Shown: positions 20,532-64,000 of the stretch, in pieces
Numbering within the stretch: the first letter of the stretch is position 1
Layout: each line of letters begins with the position of its first letter
NCBI GenBank assembly: GCA_049303675.1
Contig: JBAQNJ010000001.1
Location: 278,994 to 342,993 of the forward strand
Origin: Microgenomates group bacterium
GTDB taxonomy: Bacteria > Patescibacteriota > Microgenomatia > UBA12405
Direction of reading: 5' to 3'
Length of the DNA: 64,000 bases
Notes under the pieces: model-generated
Database searches by the model: none
Seen by the model: the letters and a program-made list of their open reading frames with translations, nothing else
Told to the model about the DNA's origin: nothing
Translations under genes and position numbers: made by a program

Positions 20532-20603
20532 CCGGTGATAGCAAAGCGGTTATGCGTCGGTCTGTAAAACCGATCTAGGTAGGTTCAACTCCTACTCACC
20601 GGA
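20532..20603 (+). tRNA. tRNA-Tyr (anticodon GTA), class I, C1-G72
   Basis: Manual cloverleaf: acceptor CCGGTGA/TCACCGG, anticodon stem TCGGT/ACCGA, loop CTGTAAA, 5-nt variable loop, T arm GTAGG-TTCAACT-CCTAC, discriminator A. No encoded CCA. Promoter TGATATAAT at 20510-20518. Confidence 0.75.
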
Positions 20604-39243: not shown

Positions 39244-39247
39244 CGCA

Positions 39248-39678
39248 GGAGGAGATGCTCGGTATTGAGCCGAGGTCCAAAGTGGACTATAAAAAACGTC
39301 TACAAGCTTAATTTACTTTATCCTACACTTTCAACAACTAAAGTAAACGAAAAGTGTTGAAATGTCGATTATTGAGGGCATTACCCCTCTCTTAAATCCA
39401 CGATCTAATCGAGAAGATCGGGACAGCATTCTAGTTTAATTTACACTAGCTAGTCTTCTCTAGAAAAGGGGACTAACTAATGGATGATTCTGTTTAGGCA
39501 AGAGCCCAAACAGGAGCCTTAGAAGCTAGAGCGCCTTTTACAGCGTTTGCAACTTTGGTTAAATCAACACCAAAAGTATTTTTGGCATGTTTGTTTTTGA
39601 CCCTGTTTAACGACTCAATGGATCAAAGTCGGCTTGCGGTTTTTTAAGGTACTCACCTTGTCGATGCAATACATCTCC
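39248..39678 (-). ncRNA. ssrA: tmRNA (SsrA), one-piece
   Basis: Minus strand. 5' GGAGATGTATTGCATCGACAAGG (compare E. coli GGGGCTGATTCTGGATTCGACGGG). 3' GGAC-CTCGG-CTCAATA-CCGAG-CATCTCC-TCC is a T-arm plus acceptor. Tag ORF GTT-GCAAACGCT... (resume codon 39550-39548, stop 39496-39494) encodes ANAVKGALASKAPVWALA. smpB lies 2.7 kb away. Confidence 0.75.
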
Positions 39679-59429: not shown

Positions 59430-59693
59430 CTAGTACACCTCCTCATGTTTGCCAATTTTTAATAAATATATAGTACCTTTTTCAATTGACAACAAAATTC
59501 TGATTGATTTATTAACTGAAATTGAATACCATTTTGTTCCTGACAACTTATGCAGCCTGAGGCTTGGATGATCTACATCATGTTCGAGAAGATCTACTAT
59601 TTTTCTAATTTTAACTACATACTTTCGATTGTGTCGAGTTAAATTTCGAAGCTGCTGATCAAATTTGTTTCCGAATACAATTTTGTACACCAA
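59430..59693 (-). CDS. RelE/ParE-fold toxin
   Basis: HPSLRLHKLSGTKWYSISVNKSIRILLSIEKGTIYLLKIGKHEEVY pattern. Lies 6 nt after the antitoxin ORF. Confidence 0.7.
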   Translation of the reverse strand: MVYKIVFGNKFDQQLRNLTRHNRKYVVKIRKIVDLLEHDVDHPSLRLHKLSGTKWYSISVNKSIRILLSIEKGTIYLLKIGKHEEVY

Positions 59694-59699
59694 CTAACA

Positions 59700-59936
59700 C
59701 TATAGACTCTTGAAATAGTTGTCAATATCTTTCTTGTTTTTTAATACAAAGCCCTTACCAGCCTTCCTCTCAGCTTTTGCTTCTGACAATAATTGATCAA
59801 GCTCTGACTCCATCAAAGTTTTTCGTAGTGATGATCTAACCAGATCACTAAACGAGGCATAATAGCCCTTTTCTATTTCTTTTTCAGCCAAAGTCTTTAA
59901 TGCCTTCGGTAGCGATATATTAATTGTACTAATCAT
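59700..59936 (-). CDS. Ribbon-helix-helix (ParD/CopG-like) antitoxin
   Basis: INISLPKALKTLAEKEIEKGYYASFSDLVRSSLRKTL is RHH-like. TGCTAATAT + 6 nt + ATG. Confidence 0.65.
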   Translation of the reverse strand: MISTINISLPKALKTLAEKEIEKGYYASFSDLVRSSLRKTLMESELDQLLSEAKAERKAGKGFVLKNKKDIDNYFKSL

Positions 59937-59973
59937 GTATGAATATTAGCATAATTGACACATGAAGACAATG

Positions 59974-59982
59974 TGTTACAAT
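59974..59982 (+). promoter_or_regulatory. Extended -10 promoter (TGTTACAAT) of the Trp leader transcript
   Basis: 6 nt upstream of the leader ATG at 59989, the same geometry as other leaderless genes here. Confidence 0.6.
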
Positions 59983-59988
59983 ATCCCA

Positions 59989-60060
59989 ATGAAATTAAAC
60001 ATCTCTACAATCTGGTGGCGAGAATCTAGCCCAAGTGCGGGAGATATTAATTTGTCATAA
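59989..60060 (+). CDS. Trp-rich leader peptide MKLNISTIWWRESSPSAGDINLS
   Basis: Tandem TGG TGG at 60013-60018 in the context WWRES (E. coli TrpL: [14 protein letters not shown]). Followed by alternative antiterminator/terminator helices. Confidence 0.65.
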   Translation: MKLNISTIWWRESSPSAGDINLS

Positions 60061-60092
60061 GTTCTAGTTTTTCCAAAAATATCAATCCCGCA
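60036..60092 (+). promoter_or_regulatory. Antiterminator helix of the Trp attenuator
   Basis: TGCGGGA-GATATT (60036-60048) pairs with AATATC-AA-TCCCGCA (60078-60092): 7 + 6 bp with a 2-nt bulge. It competes for the terminator 5' arm. Confidence 0.6.
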
Positions 60093-60109
60093 ACTGCGGG
60101 ATTTTTTTT
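60084..60109 (+). terminator. Intrinsic terminator (attenuator) upstream of tRNA-Trp
   Basis: AATCCCGC-AACT-GCGGGATT followed by a T8 run. Confidence 0.8.
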
Positions 60110-60184
60110 CGTTTAAATAGGTCTAAATTTCAAACGAAGTGAAAAAATTTTGCCTATTTACACAATCCGCCTCTGGCGGAGTTT

Positions 60185-60257
60185 GGGTGGATAGTTCAGT
60201 TGGTTAGAATGCTGGTCCCCAAAACCGGCGACAATGGTTCAAGTCCATTTCCACCCA
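60185..60257 (+). tRNA. tRNA-Trp (anticodon CCA), G1-C72, A73
   Basis: Manual cloverleaf: acceptor GGGTGGA/TCCACCC, D arm GTTC-AGTTGGTTA-GAAT, anticodon stem CTGGT/ACCGG, loop CCCCAAA, T arm AATGG-TTCAAGT-CCATT, discriminator A. No encoded CCA. Confidence 0.85.
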
Positions 60258-60259
60258 CT

Positions 60260-61222
60260 ATGATTAATTATAATCTGACAGTAGATAGGATAAAAAACAG
60301 CCTGCAAAACGGGAGATGTTTCTATGGTGAAACCTATGATTCTCATGGCATGACAATTGACTCTCTAAAGTACTATTTTTTCTTATCTCTACTACATCTG
60401 ATATTAGCTAAATCAAATATCAAAACTGAGTCGACGGTGATAATCGCCGATATTGCCTCGGGTATCAACAAATCTAGTCAAAAAATAAATTGCGATATAG
60501 ATGAGGTGGGGAAAAATCGTCTAGATTATTGTGAAAAAATAAAAAAATATTTTAATTTACCTATCAAGTTTGTTTTAATGAGCAACTTTTTTGCCACCAA
60601 TCCCATTGCAAAACTAGTTGAACAATTCGAAAATGTTGGTCATAGCAACCCCAAAGTGACTGAACTTTTAGCAAAAACAGTACTCCAAAATAAAATTAAA
60701 CAAGAAAATGATTCGGGCTTTCGTTATGGTTATGAAGAAATTGCTACCGGATCATTTTTTAATATCAAAATTGGCCCACCGCGAGAAAAATATTACGACC
60801 AAGCCGCCAAAATTATTTGCAAAAAATTAAAACTGAATCAATTAAAAAGTATTTATCTGACACCCACGTTTCCTTTGGGTCAAGATTTTTCCTATTTCCT
60901 AACTCACCCCGAAATAGAAGAATTTGGACTTACACCATACAAAGCCGGTAGTAACCAAATGCAGGATTTCAGAATAACTATAAATACAACCACGATAGAA
61001 AAAGTTGAGCAACTAATCAACGATACTTACATCACTACTAATCCAAATTTACCAAATCCAATATTTGATTTACTGTTTATTGCCAATATGGCAGAAAAGT
61101 TAAAAAACAAAGAATATGAGTTTCCAGTTTACAAAAATAATATTTATATAAATCCAAAAAAACTAAAGAGTTTTGCTTTCCAGAAAATAACTAGGTTATT
61201 GATTGATCTAAAAAATCTATGA
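60260..61222 (+). CDS. Degenerate class Ic aminoacyl-tRNA-synthetase-like protein (TyrRS/TrpRS fold, HIGH and KMSKS lost)
   Basis: By-eye alignment to trpS and archaeal TyrRS: FYGETYDSHGMTIDS (HIGH region), TVIIADIASGIN, IKFVLMSNF, IKIGPPREKYYDQAAKII (compare PVGIDQHPYILLARDVAKKI), IYLTPTFPLG. ATG 2 nt after the tRNA; the track start at 60200 lies inside the tRNA. Confidence 0.45.
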   Translation: MINYNLTVDRIKNSLQNGRCFYGETYDSHGMTIDSLKYYFFLSLLHLILAKSNIKTESTVIIADIASGINKSSQKINCDIDEVGKNRLDYCEKIKKYFNLPIKFVLMSNFFATNPIAKLVEQFENVGHSNPKVTELLAKTVLQNKIKQENDSGFRYGYEEIATGSFFNIKIGPPREKYYDQAAKIICKKLKLNQLKSIYLTPTFPLGQDFSYFLTHPEIEEFGLTPYKAGSNQMQDFRITINTTTIEKVEQLINDTYITTNPNLPNPIFDLLFIANMAEKLKNKEYEFPVYKNNIYINPKKLKSFAFQKITRLLIDLKNL

Positions 61223-62385
61223 ATAGCCCACAGGCAATTGCCCAATCACATCAAGAATATCAATCTAAATTAACTATCAAGAAAAAAATTGGGGATTATT
61301 ACTTGGATCAAACCACCAAAAATGGTCTCTCTAGCCTTGATAAAATTAAGGCCTATTTACCTCTTGATCTACAGCCACTTCATTTTCGACGCAGCATCGC
61401 TATCGCCCATCTTGATCTTGAACCAATCATCGAAAAAATTGCCAAGAATCAGGAGTTTGTTATTGTTTCCGGTCTCAATCCGTCTTCTCCCTTACACCTC
61501 GGTCATAAGGCCCTGTTTGATTTACTCCTAAGTTTACAAGGACTAGGAGCCAGAGTATTTATTCCTCTGACCAACGACGAGTCGCTAGTTGATGGTAAGG
61601 TTAGTTCTTTGGCTCAGAGTCTAAACATTGCCAAAACCTCAATTCTCCCCGACATTATCAATTTTGGATTTGATCCGGACAAAACCCATATTTTTATTGA
61701 CTCCGAATATCCCCAGCTCTACAACTTCGCTATGTATCTCAGCCAACATATTTCCTTTGGACAACTTCGTCAAGTCTTTGGTGACGATTCACTGACTACT
61801 CCTGGCCAAATTTTTTATCGTGGAGTCGTTCAAATGGCGCAGATCCTGTTACCCCAACTCCCTGAATTTGGTGGTCCAAAAGTGACTTTGATTCCAGTTG
61901 GTATTGACCAGCACCCATATATATTATTGGCTCGTGATGTTGCCAAAAAAATTGGTATGATTCCACCGTCTGAGTTGGTTATTAGATTCTTGCCTAGCTT
62001 ACTAGGGCCAGAAGATAAAATGTCGGCATCAAAACCAAACACTGCTATTTACCTTAGTGACACTCCAGAGGCAATTCACAAAAAAATTAGTCGAGCCTAT
62101 ACCGGTGCTGTTTCAGCCCTTGATGTATATCAAGAACGGGGTGGTATTCCCGAAATATGCTCAGTTTTTACTCTTCTAAATTTTCATCATCCCGACGGTG
62201 TATTTGTCGAAAATATTAAACAAAGTTATTTGCATGGTCTTATTACCATGTCTGAGTTGAAAGAACTTACAACAGCTTTTATTACCGAATTAGTCACCCG
62301 CCACCAGCAAAAAAGCCCGCCTACCTCTGATCAAATCAATAAGTACATTTTAACTACACCATTAAAATCACTTTTAACCCTATGA
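61219..62385 (+). CDS. trpS: Tryptophanyl-tRNA synthetase, archaeal/eukaryal type
   Basis: PSSPLHLGH (HIGH), IPVGIDQHPY, KMSAS (KMSKS) and GGIPEIC. ATGA overlap with the upstream ORF. Confidence 0.9.
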   Translation: MNSPQAIAQSHQEYQSKLTIKKKIGDYYLDQTTKNGLSSLDKIKAYLPLDLQPLHFRRSIAIAHLDLEPIIEKIAKNQEFVIVSGLNPSSPLHLGHKALFDLLLSLQGLGARVFIPLTNDESLVDGKVSSLAQSLNIAKTSILPDIINFGFDPDKTHIFIDSEYPQLYNFAMYLSQHISFGQLRQVFGDDSLTTPGQIFYRGVVQMAQILLPQLPEFGGPKVTLIPVGIDQHPYILLARDVAKKIGMIPPSELVIRFLPSLLGPEDKMSASKPNTAIYLSDTPEAIHKKISRAYTGAVSALDVYQERGGIPEICSVFTLLNFHHPDGVFVENIKQSYLHGLITMSELKELTTAFITELVTRHQQKSPPTSDQINKYILTTPLKSLLTL

Positions 62386-62610
62386 ACCAGATACCCGAAT
62401 CTTTAAACAATAATTCAGACCAAAGGAGGCCTCTAGGTGAACTTCCTCACCAGAGGTTAGTTTGGTGAAACTCCATCACAAAGAAGGTTTATCACTTGCT
62501 TATCCCAATCGCCACTCCAAGTTCTTGACCAAGGTGCTGGCGATCAGCGAATTATCAAACATTTAGATAGAGTCGTCCCTCCTGCCGAGTTTCCCAAAAA
62601 AGAGGCTGAG

Positions 62611-63510
62611 GTGTTGGGCAAGTTTTTAAGTCAAAATCAAACGCATCTTTCTGCTATCGATTTAGGTGGAGTATCTCAAGCAGTAGATATCACCAAAAAA
62701 CTAGTCGCTACACCGTCGCTAGTAAAAAATACAAAAATAATTACTGTCTTTGGCGCTACCGAAGCCACACCTCTTCGGGCTCTAGCTTACCCAATCCCTG
62801 CCCTTAAGTTGGCCACGGAAATTGGAGCAGTAAATCATCAGCTTCTTCCTCAGGTTGAATTTATTTTTATGTCAGAGGCAGGAGTTTTAGCCAATGGACT
62901 CGATAGATCCAAAGTTCATCAAGAAAGGGATCTTCTGCAGAAACTAATCAAAGGCTACGTCGACGAATTTCATCCCTTACTTTCTAGTCATGTCAATTTT
63001 TCCAATGACGACAGTTTCACCCCTCAAGTCATTGCCTCATCTAGTTTCAAGAACTTAACTGATGTTCTCCAAAGTTCAAATGCTGTTAATGATTTATCCA
63101 GAATGGGCACTAGTCATGGCGGTACCAATAACTCCCTAAAATACGGTGTTCTTCACTCTTACGTCCACGACCTTGTCTTGGACGATTCAAATGTCGATCT
63201 ACTCATATCTCTCGGTGCCCAGCCCGAAAGACATTTTTACAAGACAAGACAAGTCCTCAAGCCACATCTTCCATCAGTTGATGGCTTTCGACCTGTAAAG
63301 ACAATTCAATATCTGAGTTCATTTAATGTTCCCCCTTACCAGCCATTGGCAAGTGGCGACCCTACGTTACGTCAAGTTATCAATGACTTTAATAATGTCG
63401 ATTTTGATGATCTTCAAACTCCGGTCCGACAAGCCATAAATTTATTGGCCAAGGATACATCAGGATATTCTACTCTCGCTAACTTTCTCAAAGAAAATCA
63501 AAATATTTAA
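62611..63510 (+). CDS. Second degenerate class Ic synthetase-like protein
   Basis: ITVFGATEATPLRALAYPI (HIGH region without His), VEFIFMSEAGVLANGLD, VNFSNDDSF, LKYGVLHSYVHDLVL....LLISLGAQPERHFYKTRQVL (compare GIDQHPYILLARDVA). GTG start; the frame is open for 150 nt upstream without a start codon. Confidence 0.4.
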   Translation: MLGKFLSQNQTHLSAIDLGGVSQAVDITKKLVATPSLVKNTKIITVFGATEATPLRALAYPIPALKLATEIGAVNHQLLPQVEFIFMSEAGVLANGLDRSKVHQERDLLQKLIKGYVDEFHPLLSSHVNFSNDDSFTPQVIASSSFKNLTDVLQSSNAVNDLSRMGTSHGGTNNSLKYGVLHSYVHDLVLDDSNVDLLISLGAQPERHFYKTRQVLKPHLPSVDGFRPVKTIQYLSSFNVPPYQPLASGDPTLRQVINDFNNVDFDDLQTPVRQAINLLAKDTSGYSTLANFLKENQNI

Positions 63511-63527: not shown

Positions 63528-64000
63528 ATGATCGAACCAATTGTTCTTCAAAATAATCAAACACTCGCAAAACTTGGCATTGAATATACCAACCTCGAGC
63601 ATCCACCCATCAAAGAAATCTTTGATTGTATGCGTTTTCTTGGTCTGCCCATTTCCGAAGGTTTTTCCACCCTTATCATGAAGGCTGATGATCGCTATGT
63701 GGCCATCATCCGTCGCGATGATTGTAAATTAGACTTAAACAAAGCCTGTAAGGTAATTGGCTGCTCCAAATTAAATTTAGCATCCCCCGACGAGTTTGAA
63801 GCCTTAACCCACTTACCTTCCGGAGCCGCTTTCGTCGTTAATTCAGGAATAAAAACATATCTCGACCAAAAGCTATTCGATAAAGAATACCTAATTGGTG
63901 GATCAGGCAGTTTGTCAGTCAGTAACAAATACCGTTCCGTTGACCTCAAAAAAATACCCGACAGCATCATTGTCGATATTGCTGATATTAAGGCAAAACA
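63528..64000 (+). CDS. YbaK/ProX-like aminoacyl-tRNA deacylase domain protein; 3' end beyond window
   Basis: Not in the ORF track because it runs off the end. Manual translation MIEPIVLQNNQTLAKLGIEYTNLEHPPIKEIFDC...STLIMKADDRYVAIIRRDDCKLDLNKA...LPSGAAFVVNSG...LIGGSGSL fits the YbaK/EbsC editing-domain pattern. Confidence 0.6.
   Translation, partial: MIEPIVLQNNQTLAKLGIEYTNLEHPPIKEIFDCMRFLGLPISEGFSTLIMKADDRYVAIIRRDDCKLDLNKACKVIGCSKLNLASPDEFEALTHLPSGAAFVVNSGIKTYLDQKLFDKEYLIGGSGSLSVSNKYRSVDLKKIPDSIIVDIADIKAK

Follow-up and report, generated by a model that had tools for sequence, protein, structure and literature searches.

A 64,000-nucleotide (nt) stretch of a Microgenomates group bacterium genome (assembly GCA_049303675.1, contig JBAQNJ010000001.1, positions 278,994 to 342,993; hereafter the window, to which all unlabelled positions refer) carries a tryptophan (Trp) tRNA gene, tRNA-Trp(CCA), followed by the open reading frame (ORF) ORF1 and by TrpRS-A, an archaeal/eukaryal-type tryptophanyl-tRNA synthetase (TrpRS). 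We consider it likely that these genes belong to a backup tRNA/synthetase operon induced by Trp starvation, headed by a functional tRNA-Trp(CCA) of the archaeal/eukaryal identity type and controlled by an attenuator. An operon of this kind, including the archaeal identity type of its tRNA, has already been described in Microgenomates as tRNATrp(A73)-ORF1-TrpRS-A1 (Mukai, Reynolds, Crnkovic & Soll 2017, Life 7:8, PMC5370408) and is not new. What goes beyond the published operon is a clade-fixed C at tRNA position 33 (C33), a junction of 2–4 nt between tRNA and ORF1, a predicted Trp leader-peptide attenuator, and the replacement of that attenuator by a T-box-like element or by trpR in sister lineages. 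The attenuator is the main addition; it would most likely render the tRNA and its Trp-free synthetase set inducible by Trp starvation.

An archaeal-type tRNA-Trp and TrpRS beside a bacterial-type enzyme

ARAGORN calls tRNA-Trp(cca) at 60185-60258, one of two tRNAs called in the window. The Rfam tRNA model RF00005 matches 60185-60257 over its full length (63.1 bits, gathering score 29, E 2.5e-11), with 0 non-canonical pairs flagged. Its D-loop (GG) and T-loop (TTCAAGT) are of canonical sequence. Within the acceptor stem GGGTGGA/TCCACCC, G1 (60185) pairs with C72 (60256), and the discriminator A73 is base 60257. Bacterial tRNA-Trp is identified by G73, and archaeal and eukaryal tRNA-Trp by A73 together with G1-C72, with a cross-species discrimination of about 100-fold (PMC5370408, PMC12135181). 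A first-pass annotation of the window, which had ended the tRNA feature at 60262 and so took in the ATG of ORF1, had proposed the archaeal/eukaryal identity set and a matching archaeal-type trpS 1 kb downstream. Both readings hold. The TrpRS-A gene starts ~1 kb downstream of the tRNA, and its best PDB matches are to the Pyrococcus horikoshii (E 2e-48) and human (~1e-41) enzymes, far stronger than those to bacterial TrpRS (1e-8 to 1e-13).

A TrpRS protein search recovered Candidatus Shapirobacteria genomes at 68–83% identity, plus Dojkabacteria and Woesebacteria; a metagenome scan with ORF-family alignment added 75 further loci. De-duplication left 58 loci in which a tRNA-Trp lies immediately before an ORF1 homologue, with 42 distinct tRNA sequences among them. 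The order tRNATrp(A73)-ORF1-TrpRS-A of the window is kept in 58 loci, and A73 is present in 41 and G1-C72 in 40 of the 42 distinct orthologous tRNAs. Position 73 was assigned from acceptor-stem pairing; the 3' ends given by ARAGORN are inconsistent, some including CCA. In the assignment by pairing, L022/L023 and L077 are still mis-registered. Loci with an ORF1 identity of 38% or less mostly have no upstream tRNA-Trp, and the sequence of L004 ends 54 nt upstream of ORF1, with no abutting tRNA there. The host is described as a tiny groundwater bacterium.

The genome also encodes a bacterial-type TrpRS from ~63528, fused to a YbaK-like editing domain, and the A73 tRNA/TrpRS-A pair is therefore accessory. 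This status had been overlooked in the first-pass annotation, whose identity reading was right but incomplete. The A73 tRNA and TrpRS-A probably form an orthogonal Trp-charging system, which coexists with the bacterial-type TrpRS. Not a single Trp occurs in the 1,494 residues of ORF1, TrpRS-A, the downstream protein ORF299 and the YbaK-TrpRS fusion, against a crude window background of ~1.4%; by simple arithmetic the probability of this arising by chance is ~5e-10.

A second, bacterial-type tRNA-Trp (A1-U72, G73, U33) is carried by three relatives (L014, L022 and L030). It lies after trpS-A in L014, a Shapirobacteria locus with a C33 tRNA, and has its own W-containing mini-ORF and terminator. 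This leader-like mini-ORF, MTKLIIFQTWRHTTNLSTGDIFWR followed by a stop codon (L014 4520-4729, terminator and tRNA included), resembles the leader of the window, but its Trp codons are single and separated. L022 (505-651) and L030 (215-364) have tandem tRNA-Trp genes, G73 first and then A73, 1–5 nt apart, with a single T-box-like leader upstream and ORF1 immediately downstream.

A predicted Trp leader-peptide attenuator upstream of the tRNA

Upstream of the tRNA we found a near-consensus promoter, a mini-ORF with adjacent Trp codons and an intrinsic terminator whose 5' arm can alternatively pair with the 3' part of the mini-ORF (Table 1). Homologous mini-ORFs with WW or WWW are found at this position in 12 distinct loci, U33 lineages among them. 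Further leader peptides read MKLIVSQSWWCNSSLLAGDVLIS, MKLNVSTSWWQNNGLLVGDFNLA and MLSKIISQIWWWNNKPQAGGMVTA, and those of U33 lineages MFKQRIILRSDKVWWAPQLARGD, MKTLRKHSNWWQSLIHREGS and MTITKTRKHTNWWQPIIGEGS. Within the C33 clade the distance from WW to the stop codon is constant (39 nt). The -10 boxes of its five distinct loci are TGnTAnAAT in four and a plain TATAAT in one, all located 6–9 nt before the leader ATG.

Pairing of segments 2 and 3 appears in the unconstrained fold of the whole window leader, and in the truncated fold the antiterminator is predicted at -14.6 kcal/mol compared with -10.2 kcal/mol for the terminator. All loci with a WW leader contain a segment near the mini-ORF 3' end that pairs with the terminator 5' arm (-14 to -25 kcal/mol, as against -8 to -11 kcal/mol for the terminator). 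Furthermore, segments 2, 3 and 4 covary, as seen in the combinations GCGGGA/UCCCGC/GCGGGA, GGGGUGA/UCACCCCGC/GCGGGG, AGAGGGUU/AACCCUCU/AGAGGG (AGAGGG/CCCUCU/AGAGGG) and GGAGGGUU/AACCCUCC/GGAGGG (GGAGGG/CCCUCC/GGAGGG). In the attenuators of Escherichia coli trp and pheST, segment 2 is free while a ribosome stalls at the regulatory codons and is covered once the ribosome reaches the stop codon. The spacing of the Trp codons, segment 2 and the stop codon (60058) in the window fits this classical geometry.

In the relatives, the T-run of the terminator ends 4–17 nt before the tRNA. As this leaves no room for a separate promoter, the tRNA would there be made by read-through only. A promoter scan of 60110-60184, between terminator and tRNA of the window, found no second promoter. 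The entire operon, including its tRNA, is most likely under the control of the attenuator, which had been overlooked in the first-pass annotation. A perfect hairpin, CCGCC-TCT-GGCGG, is located at 60168-60180, five nt before the tRNA 5' end; it is absent from L001 and L002, and may be a processing site or an insertion remnant.

Regulatory replacement in sister lineages

The position of the WW leader is held by a T-box-like leader in 15 distinct sister loci, with the T-box sequence (A)AGGUGGUACCGC (GGUGGUACCGC box) followed by a terminator. Full-length matches to the T-box model RF00230 in these loci have E-values of 1.6e-6, 5.5e-6 and 4.6e-4, with 1.2e-8 in a local search. These sub-threshold matches come from a permissive search only; at the gathering threshold RF00230 has no match in the window or in 20 related loci. 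A T-box in the window itself was rejected, as RF00230 has no match there.

The bulge of a T-box antiterminator pairs with the discriminator and CCA end of the tRNA, so that UGGU fits A73-CCA and UGGC would fit G73. Among the 14 T-box-like loci in which the bulge was read, UGGU occurs in 11 and UGGC in 3 (L030, L015 and L044), which suggests that different loci may sense different tRNA-Trp types. A Dojkabacteria locus (L005) has trpR directly upstream instead (PF01371, E 5e-18). The fact that a T-box-like leader or trpR replaces the WW leader in sister lineages supports the reading of the window leader as a Trp-responsive element.

C33 is fixed in one clade

The Rfam alignment places C32-C33-C34-C35-A36-A37-A38 in the anticodon loop, against the consensus CUuauAA. 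The U33 of elongator tRNAs is hence replaced by C at 60218 in the covariance-model alignment. This agrees with the first-pass annotation, which had read the loop as CCCCAAA; neither the ARAGORN call that it had proposed as a check nor the covariance fold gives U33 or another anticodon. The comparison of tRNA-Trp genes across the Candidate Phyla Radiation (CPR), likewise its suggestion, places C33 in five distinct sequences of one Shapirobacteria-like clade, next to the near-general A73. The loop CCCCAAA is found only where ORF1 is at least 53% identical to that of the window, i.e. in the window, L001, L002, L007-L014 and L003 (in L003 a run of N covers the tRNA 5' half and the 3' part alone is readable). 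All remaining distinct tRNAs, 37 in number, keep U33; their loops read CTCCAAA, CTCCAGA or TTCCAGA.

C33 is not an assembly error, since it recurs in 13 independently assembled loci. The loop is invariant while the stems change with compensation: within the clade CTGGT/ACCGG alternates with CTTGT/ACAGG in the anticodon stem and GGGTGGA/TCCACCC with GGATGGA/TCCATCC in the acceptor stem, and the T stem also differs with compensation. C33 is therefore genuine and has been inherited in a gene that is functional.

U33 is otherwise near-universal in elongator tRNAs (PMC5041475). Natural exceptions are the eukaryotic initiator tRNA-Met (C33), Candida tRNA-Ser (G33) and yeast tRNA-Leu(GAG) (PMC5041475, PMC13492127). 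For the Saccharomyces cerevisiae tRNA-Leu(GAG), changing C33 to U has minor effects only, and the natural C33 is of minimal functional effect (PMC13492127). C33 in the window is a fixed clade-specific variant of an accessory, redundant tRNA and is probably near-neutral for decoding. Alternatively, C33 could be adaptive and tune the accessory tRNA: it might make decoding less efficient, keep out a nuclease of the anticodon loop or a non-cognate enzyme, or undergo C-to-U editing after transcription. The near-universality of U33, and the invariance of C33 across five distinct sequences whose acceptor, anticodon and T stems vary with compensation, would be in keeping with such a role. However, the clade-wide identity can be explained by inheritance alone, and C33 is limited to one clade, whereas 37 other distinct tRNAs in the same operon type and with the same regulators keep U33. 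Together with the minimal effect of the natural C33 in yeast, and with no deaminase or nuclease link having been found for C33, this makes an adaptive role doubtful.

It is far less probable that the element does not decode at all and acts as a regulatory mimic of a tRNA, in cis or as a decoy, by which TrpRS-A or ORF1 would control translation of its own operon, comparable to the operator of thrS. The position of the element exactly at the translation start of a synthetase operon, the atypical C33, and the synthetase fold of ORF1 could all be accommodated by such a model. In contrast, the full canonical tRNA score (63 bits), the D-loop GG, the T-loop TTCAAGT and the preservation of all four stems by compensatory changes are those of a tRNA. 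The UGGU bulge of the sister T-box-like leaders (11 of the 14 read) complements A73-CCA and so implies a mature, chargeable A73 tRNA, and Mukai et al. hold the same view of the tRNA (PMC5370408).

The junction between tRNA and ORF1

The ATG of ORF1 (60260) follows A73 after the two bases CT (60258-60259), with the upstream sequence TCCACCCACT. The first-pass annotation had described this spacing, and correctly noted that it leaves no room for a promoter or a Shine-Dalgarno (SD) sequence; there is no SD. A mechanical ORF call opens at TTG 60200, within the tRNA. No in-frame ATG, GTG or TTG occurs from 60260 to the invariant family motif YGETYD (codons 22-27), and the next Met comes only at codon 31, a position of the conserved core that is L or I in homologues. 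Hence ATG 60260 is the only plausible ORF1 start outside the tRNA, and the downstream Met start raised in the first-pass annotation as a counter-possibility is not borne out. The NCBI annotation of the genome also starts ORF1 at 60260 (P0001, 320 residues).

Across the 42 distinct loci, the gap between A73 and the start codon is 2–4 nt in 21 (A-CT-ATG, A-CC-ATG, A-CCT-ATG or A-CCAT-ATG), 5–21 nt in 19 and longer in 2. The 5–21 nt gaps typically consist of CCA, an SD (AGAGG or AAGGA) and ATG.

Leaderless initiation appears to be the norm in this genome, because a -10-like hexamer (TAnHAT) precedes the start codon by 5–10 nt in 34 of the 64 crude gene calls, versus ~0.5 per background position. 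An SD-like motif is missing from 46 of the 64; the 3' end of the 16S rRNA keeps CCUCC. Literature searches on leaderless initiation in Patescibacteria found no paper. The CCA end is not encoded in any of the five tRNA or transfer-messenger RNA (tmRNA) genes seen in this genome. The tmRNA gene (39247-39678, minus strand) has the 3' end UCCUCCU in place of an encoded ACCA, which fits a genome without encoded CCA ends. In Bacillus subtilis, CCA-less precursors undergo an endonucleolytic RNase-Z-type cut right after the discriminator N73, followed by CCA addition, and the CCA-less genes here imply the same order of events. Given a largely leaderless genome and tRNA genes without an encoded CCA, it is plausible, by analogy, that RNase-Z-type excision of the tRNA releases a near-leaderless ORF1 mRNA (5'-P-CUAUG); both the processing site and the leaderless translation of ORF1 are predictions. 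The tRNA-punctuation-like release of an essentially leaderless mRNA, put forward in the first-pass annotation, is thus well motivated as a prediction.

A competing model is that ribosomes initiate internally on ORF1, independently of an SD, while the transcript is still uncut or cut at the tRNA 5' end only, with the proximity of the tRNA reflecting compaction and with excision and translation in competition. Most window genes lack an SD, the ORF1 start region (ATGATTAATTATAAT) is A/U-rich, and the operon works without abutment in the 19 distinct loci that use CCA and an SD. However, a folded tRNA 2 nt before the AUG would occupy the region of the 30S mRNA channel, as is established from ribosome footprints. 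In addition, SD-less internal cistrons are here usually coupled by overlap, as with the ATGA of trpS at 61219, whereas ORF1 has no upstream ORF, and the abutting class recurs across several lineages. We therefore regard internal initiation as improbable relative to release by excision. That ORF1 starts inside the tRNA gene (TTG 60200 or ATG 60209), making the 2-nt junction an annotation artefact, can practically be dismissed: the window frame is open through the tRNA and some gene callers extend homologues there (entries of 340–345 residues), but the gap of 2, 3 or 4 nt in relatives means that the frame through the conserved tRNA is not kept, the ORF of L003 and L005 begins at the abutting ATG, and the extension is tRNA sequence read as protein and nothing more.

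Proposed mechanism

Transcription would start at the extended -10 promoter, 6 nt before the leaderless 23-codon mini-ORF with its two adjacent Trp codons. When charged tRNA-Trp is plentiful, the ribosome would reach the stop codon and cover segment 2, so that the terminator forms and the tRNA remains untranscribed. When charged tRNA-Trp is scarce, the ribosome would stall at WW, and pairing of segments 2 and 3 would create the antiterminator, allowing RNA polymerase to continue through the tRNA and the genes of the Trp-free proteins. The tRNA would then be freed by RNase P together with an RNase-Z-type cut after A73 and receive its CCA end later, and the remaining RNA (5'-CUAUG) would be translated as a near-leaderless mRNA, seemingly the usual initiation mode in this genome. 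C33 would be a fixed clade-specific variant of this accessory tRNA, probably near-neutral for decoding.

Several points weigh against this model. The transcription start, the read-through and the cleavage sites are all deduced from sequence. The window, unlike its relatives, has 75 nt between the T-run and the tRNA, and a weak, unrecognised promoter could lie there. The T-box matches of the sister loci, at 43.6 bits, do not reach the gathering score of 93 bits, and their Stem I is short or truncated. Finally, abutment is not essential to the operon, as 19 of the 42 distinct loci carry CCA and an SD (AGAGG/AAGGA) before ORF1.

Table 1 Features of the operon and its upstream region
Feature	Position	Strand	Basis and remarks
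Sigma-70-type promoter, TTGACA-16 nt-TGtTACAAT (extended -10)	59955..59982	+	11/12 consensus matches plus TG; ends 6 nt before leader ATG
Leader mini-ORF, MKLNISTIWWRESSPSAGDINLS and stop, 23 codons	59989..60060	+	Translation; homologous mini-ORFs; transcript probably leaderless
Tandem Trp codons TGG TGG (putative regulatory codons)	60013..60018	+	WW or WWW in every leader of this type
Predicted antiterminator segment 2 (UGCGGGAGAUAUU)	60036..60048	+	Inside leader ORF, 10-22 nt before stop; pairs with 60078-60092
Segment 3 (AAUAUCAAUCCCGCA)	60078..60092	+	Common to antiterminator and terminator 5' arm
Intrinsic terminator, AAUCCCGC-AACU-GCGGGAUU then T8	60084..60109	+	8 pairs, 5 G-C
tRNA-Trp(CCA), archaeal/eukaryal identity type	60185..60257	+	ARAGORN, Rfam; anticodon (positions 34-36) 60219-60221; CCA end not encoded
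Junction: CT spacer and ORF1 ATG	60258..60262	+	Sequence; an RNase-Z-type cut after A73 would leave 5'-CUAUG
ORF1, 320 residues, 0 Trp, divergent class Ic synthetase (TyrRS/TrpRS) fold	60260..61222	+	Overlaps trpS by 4 nt (ATGA)
TrpRS-A (trpS), archaeal/eukaryal-type, 388 residues, 0 Trp	61219..62385	+	Pfam PF00579, NCBIfam trpS models, PDB matches
ORF299, 0 Trp, second divergent class Ic synthetase-fold protein	62611..63510	+	AlphaFold2/Foldseek
YbaK-like editing domain and bacterial-type TrpRS fusion, 487 residues, 0 Trp, 5' part in window	63528..64000	+	Continues past window end

ORF1, ORF299 and the YbaK-TrpRS fusion

More than 190 homologues of ORF1 were found, all in Patescibacteria and none with a Pfam domain; they include P0012 from Beckwithbacteria RBG_13_42_9, a genome treated in PMC5370408 (E 1.3e-83, 47% identity to the window ORF1). 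The AlphaFold2 model of ORF1 has a predicted local distance difference test (pLDDT) score of 84.9 and a predicted template modelling (pTM) score of 0.87. Foldseek matches it to archaeal/eukaryal tyrosyl-tRNA synthetase (TyrRS; E 1e-8, probability 1.0, template modelling (TM) score 0.6–0.67). A comparison of the ORF1 profile to TrpRS-A by hhalign gave no link (probability 0.1), and phmmer found no match to ORF1 among PDB sequences. Kinship of ORF1 and TrpRS-A at the sequence level was accordingly rejected; the relationship is visible at the fold level only. Since the order of secondary-structure elements corresponds, h-G-x-T at ~29-32 and K-A-G-S-N at 228-232 may be degenerate counterparts of the HIGH and KMSKS signature motifs, respectively. 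According to a proposal by Mukai et al., ORF1 acts within a heterodimer or a complex (PMC5370408).

ORF299 has no match in Pfam or NCBIfam and five homologues only. Its AlphaFold2 model (pLDDT 80.6) matches bacterial TyrRS in Foldseek (E 9e-7, probability 1.0, TM ~0.48), and BLASTP of ORF1 against ORF299 gave a 28-residue local match only. According to these models, each true synthetase is preceded by a divergent partner of predicted synthetase fold. The homologues of ORF299 share a conserved N-terminal extension (SPL-IF...RIIKHL...), which the window reads in frame from 62461 with no ATG, GTG or TTG (62461-62610). This points to a non-canonical start codon or to a recent loss of the N-terminus.

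The YbaK-TrpRS fusion ends at ~64991, as seen in L082 (13269-14732), the locus extended beyond the window (window coordinate = L082 coordinate + 50259). It matches TIGR00233 with 269 bits (cut-off 176.75) as well as PF04073 and PF00579. An N-terminal editing domain (YbaK/ProX-like) on a TrpRS is unusual. The gene next downstream encodes a major facilitator superfamily transporter.

Divergent from the leader promoter region, 59430-59936 (minus strand) encodes a ParE/RelE-like toxin (87 residues) and a ribbon-helix-helix antitoxin (78 residues), and a second, YafQ-like toxin is found ~4 kb downstream (L082 16209-16481). Elsewhere in the window, tRNA-Tyr(GTA) at 20532-20603 (C1-G72, A73, 72 nt, no long variable arm) is of the archaeal/eukaryal Tyr identity type; such tRNA-Tyr in CPR bacteria has been reported by Mukai et al. 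(PMC5370408).

Implications

In the window, a single bacterium would naturally combine two Trp tRNA/synthetase pairs, probably orthogonal to each other, of which one, with its tRNA gene, is under amino-acid-sensing transcription control. To our knowledge, attenuator or T-box control of a tRNA gene has rarely, if ever, been described. Regulatory replacement is clearly exemplified by the leader position, which holds a WW leader, a T-box-like leader or trpR depending on the lineage. The locus also supplies concrete sequences on which to study bacterial tRNA excision leading to leaderless mRNA, the dispensability of U33 in an elongator tRNA, and the roles of ORF1 and ORF299, and the tRNA/synthetase pairs are candidate parts for genetic-code expansion. 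A broader proposal, which we put forward tentatively and hold to be rather unlikely as a whole, is that Microgenomates routinely use tRNA excision to create near-leaderless 5' ends of internal cistrons, that this is coupled to an attenuator or T-box making the orthogonal pair inducible by Trp starvation, and that C33 is a functional adaptation of the Shapirobacteria clade. If this were true, Microgenomates would have a bacterial equivalent of the tRNA punctuation known from mitochondria.

Comparison with known systems

The operon described by Mukai et al. (PMC5370408) has the same gene order as the window, an A73/G1-C72 tRNA, ORF1 placed after the tRNA and before an archaeal-type TrpRS gene, a bacteria-type TrpRS downstream of the operon, and proteins without Trp. 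That study covers 12 TrpRS-A genes, compared with the ORF1 homologues and the 58 loci with tRNA considered here. C33, the 2-nt tRNA/ORF1 junction, a leader peptide and a T-box are not mentioned there (0 occurrences), nor were C33 in such a tRNA or the 2-nt junction found in our literature searches. The structural model in PMC5370408 gives ORF1 without a Rossmann fold, whereas AlphaFold2 and Foldseek give a full TyrRS-like fold.

Mitochondrial tRNA punctuation, to which all cases of punctuation found in a literature search belong, shares with the window a tRNA that abuts the next ORF, an mRNA 5' end that RNase P and RNase Z excision would place at or near the AUG, and no use of an SD. The window differs in being a bacterial chromosome with a single junction in place of a genome-wide system, and cleavage is here predicted from the sequence.

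Like the window tRNA, the natural C33 tRNAs (eukaryotic initiator tRNA-Met and yeast tRNA-Leu(GAG)) have C for U33 in an otherwise normal anticodon loop, and yeast tRNA-Leu(GAG) is also a non-essential, redundant elongator. Unlike these, the window tRNA is a bacterial tRNA-Trp with a run of four C (32-35), confined to one CPR clade.

T-box leaders (RF00230) of Gram-positive synthetase genes follow the same logic as the WW leader in sensing uncharged tRNA-Trp. The sister elements resemble them in having a GGUGGUACCGC box and a terminator at the WW-leader position, but are reduced, with a short Stem I; literature searches on T-boxes in CPR bacteria found nothing.

With regard to the attenuator, the principle is of a known kind, as predicted Trp attenuators precede auxiliary trpS genes in Streptomyces, where attenuators are predicted for trpS2 and leuS (PMC1262725). 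Literature searches found neither attenuator control of a tRNA gene nor such an attenuator in CPR bacteria. Unlike the known examples, the window has a tRNA gene as the first regulated gene, a leader that is itself apparently leaderless, and a CPR host; no clear 1:2 anti-antiterminator was identified, and its leader position is taken by a T-box-like element or trpR in sister lineages. In common with E. coli trpL and pheM-pheST and with the Streptomyces trpS2 and leuS attenuators, the window combines a short leader ORF, tandem regulatory codons, an intrinsic terminator and, overlapping it, an antiterminator with its 5' strand inside the leader ORF close to the stop codon, and in some of these systems, too, a synthetase gene is the one controlled.

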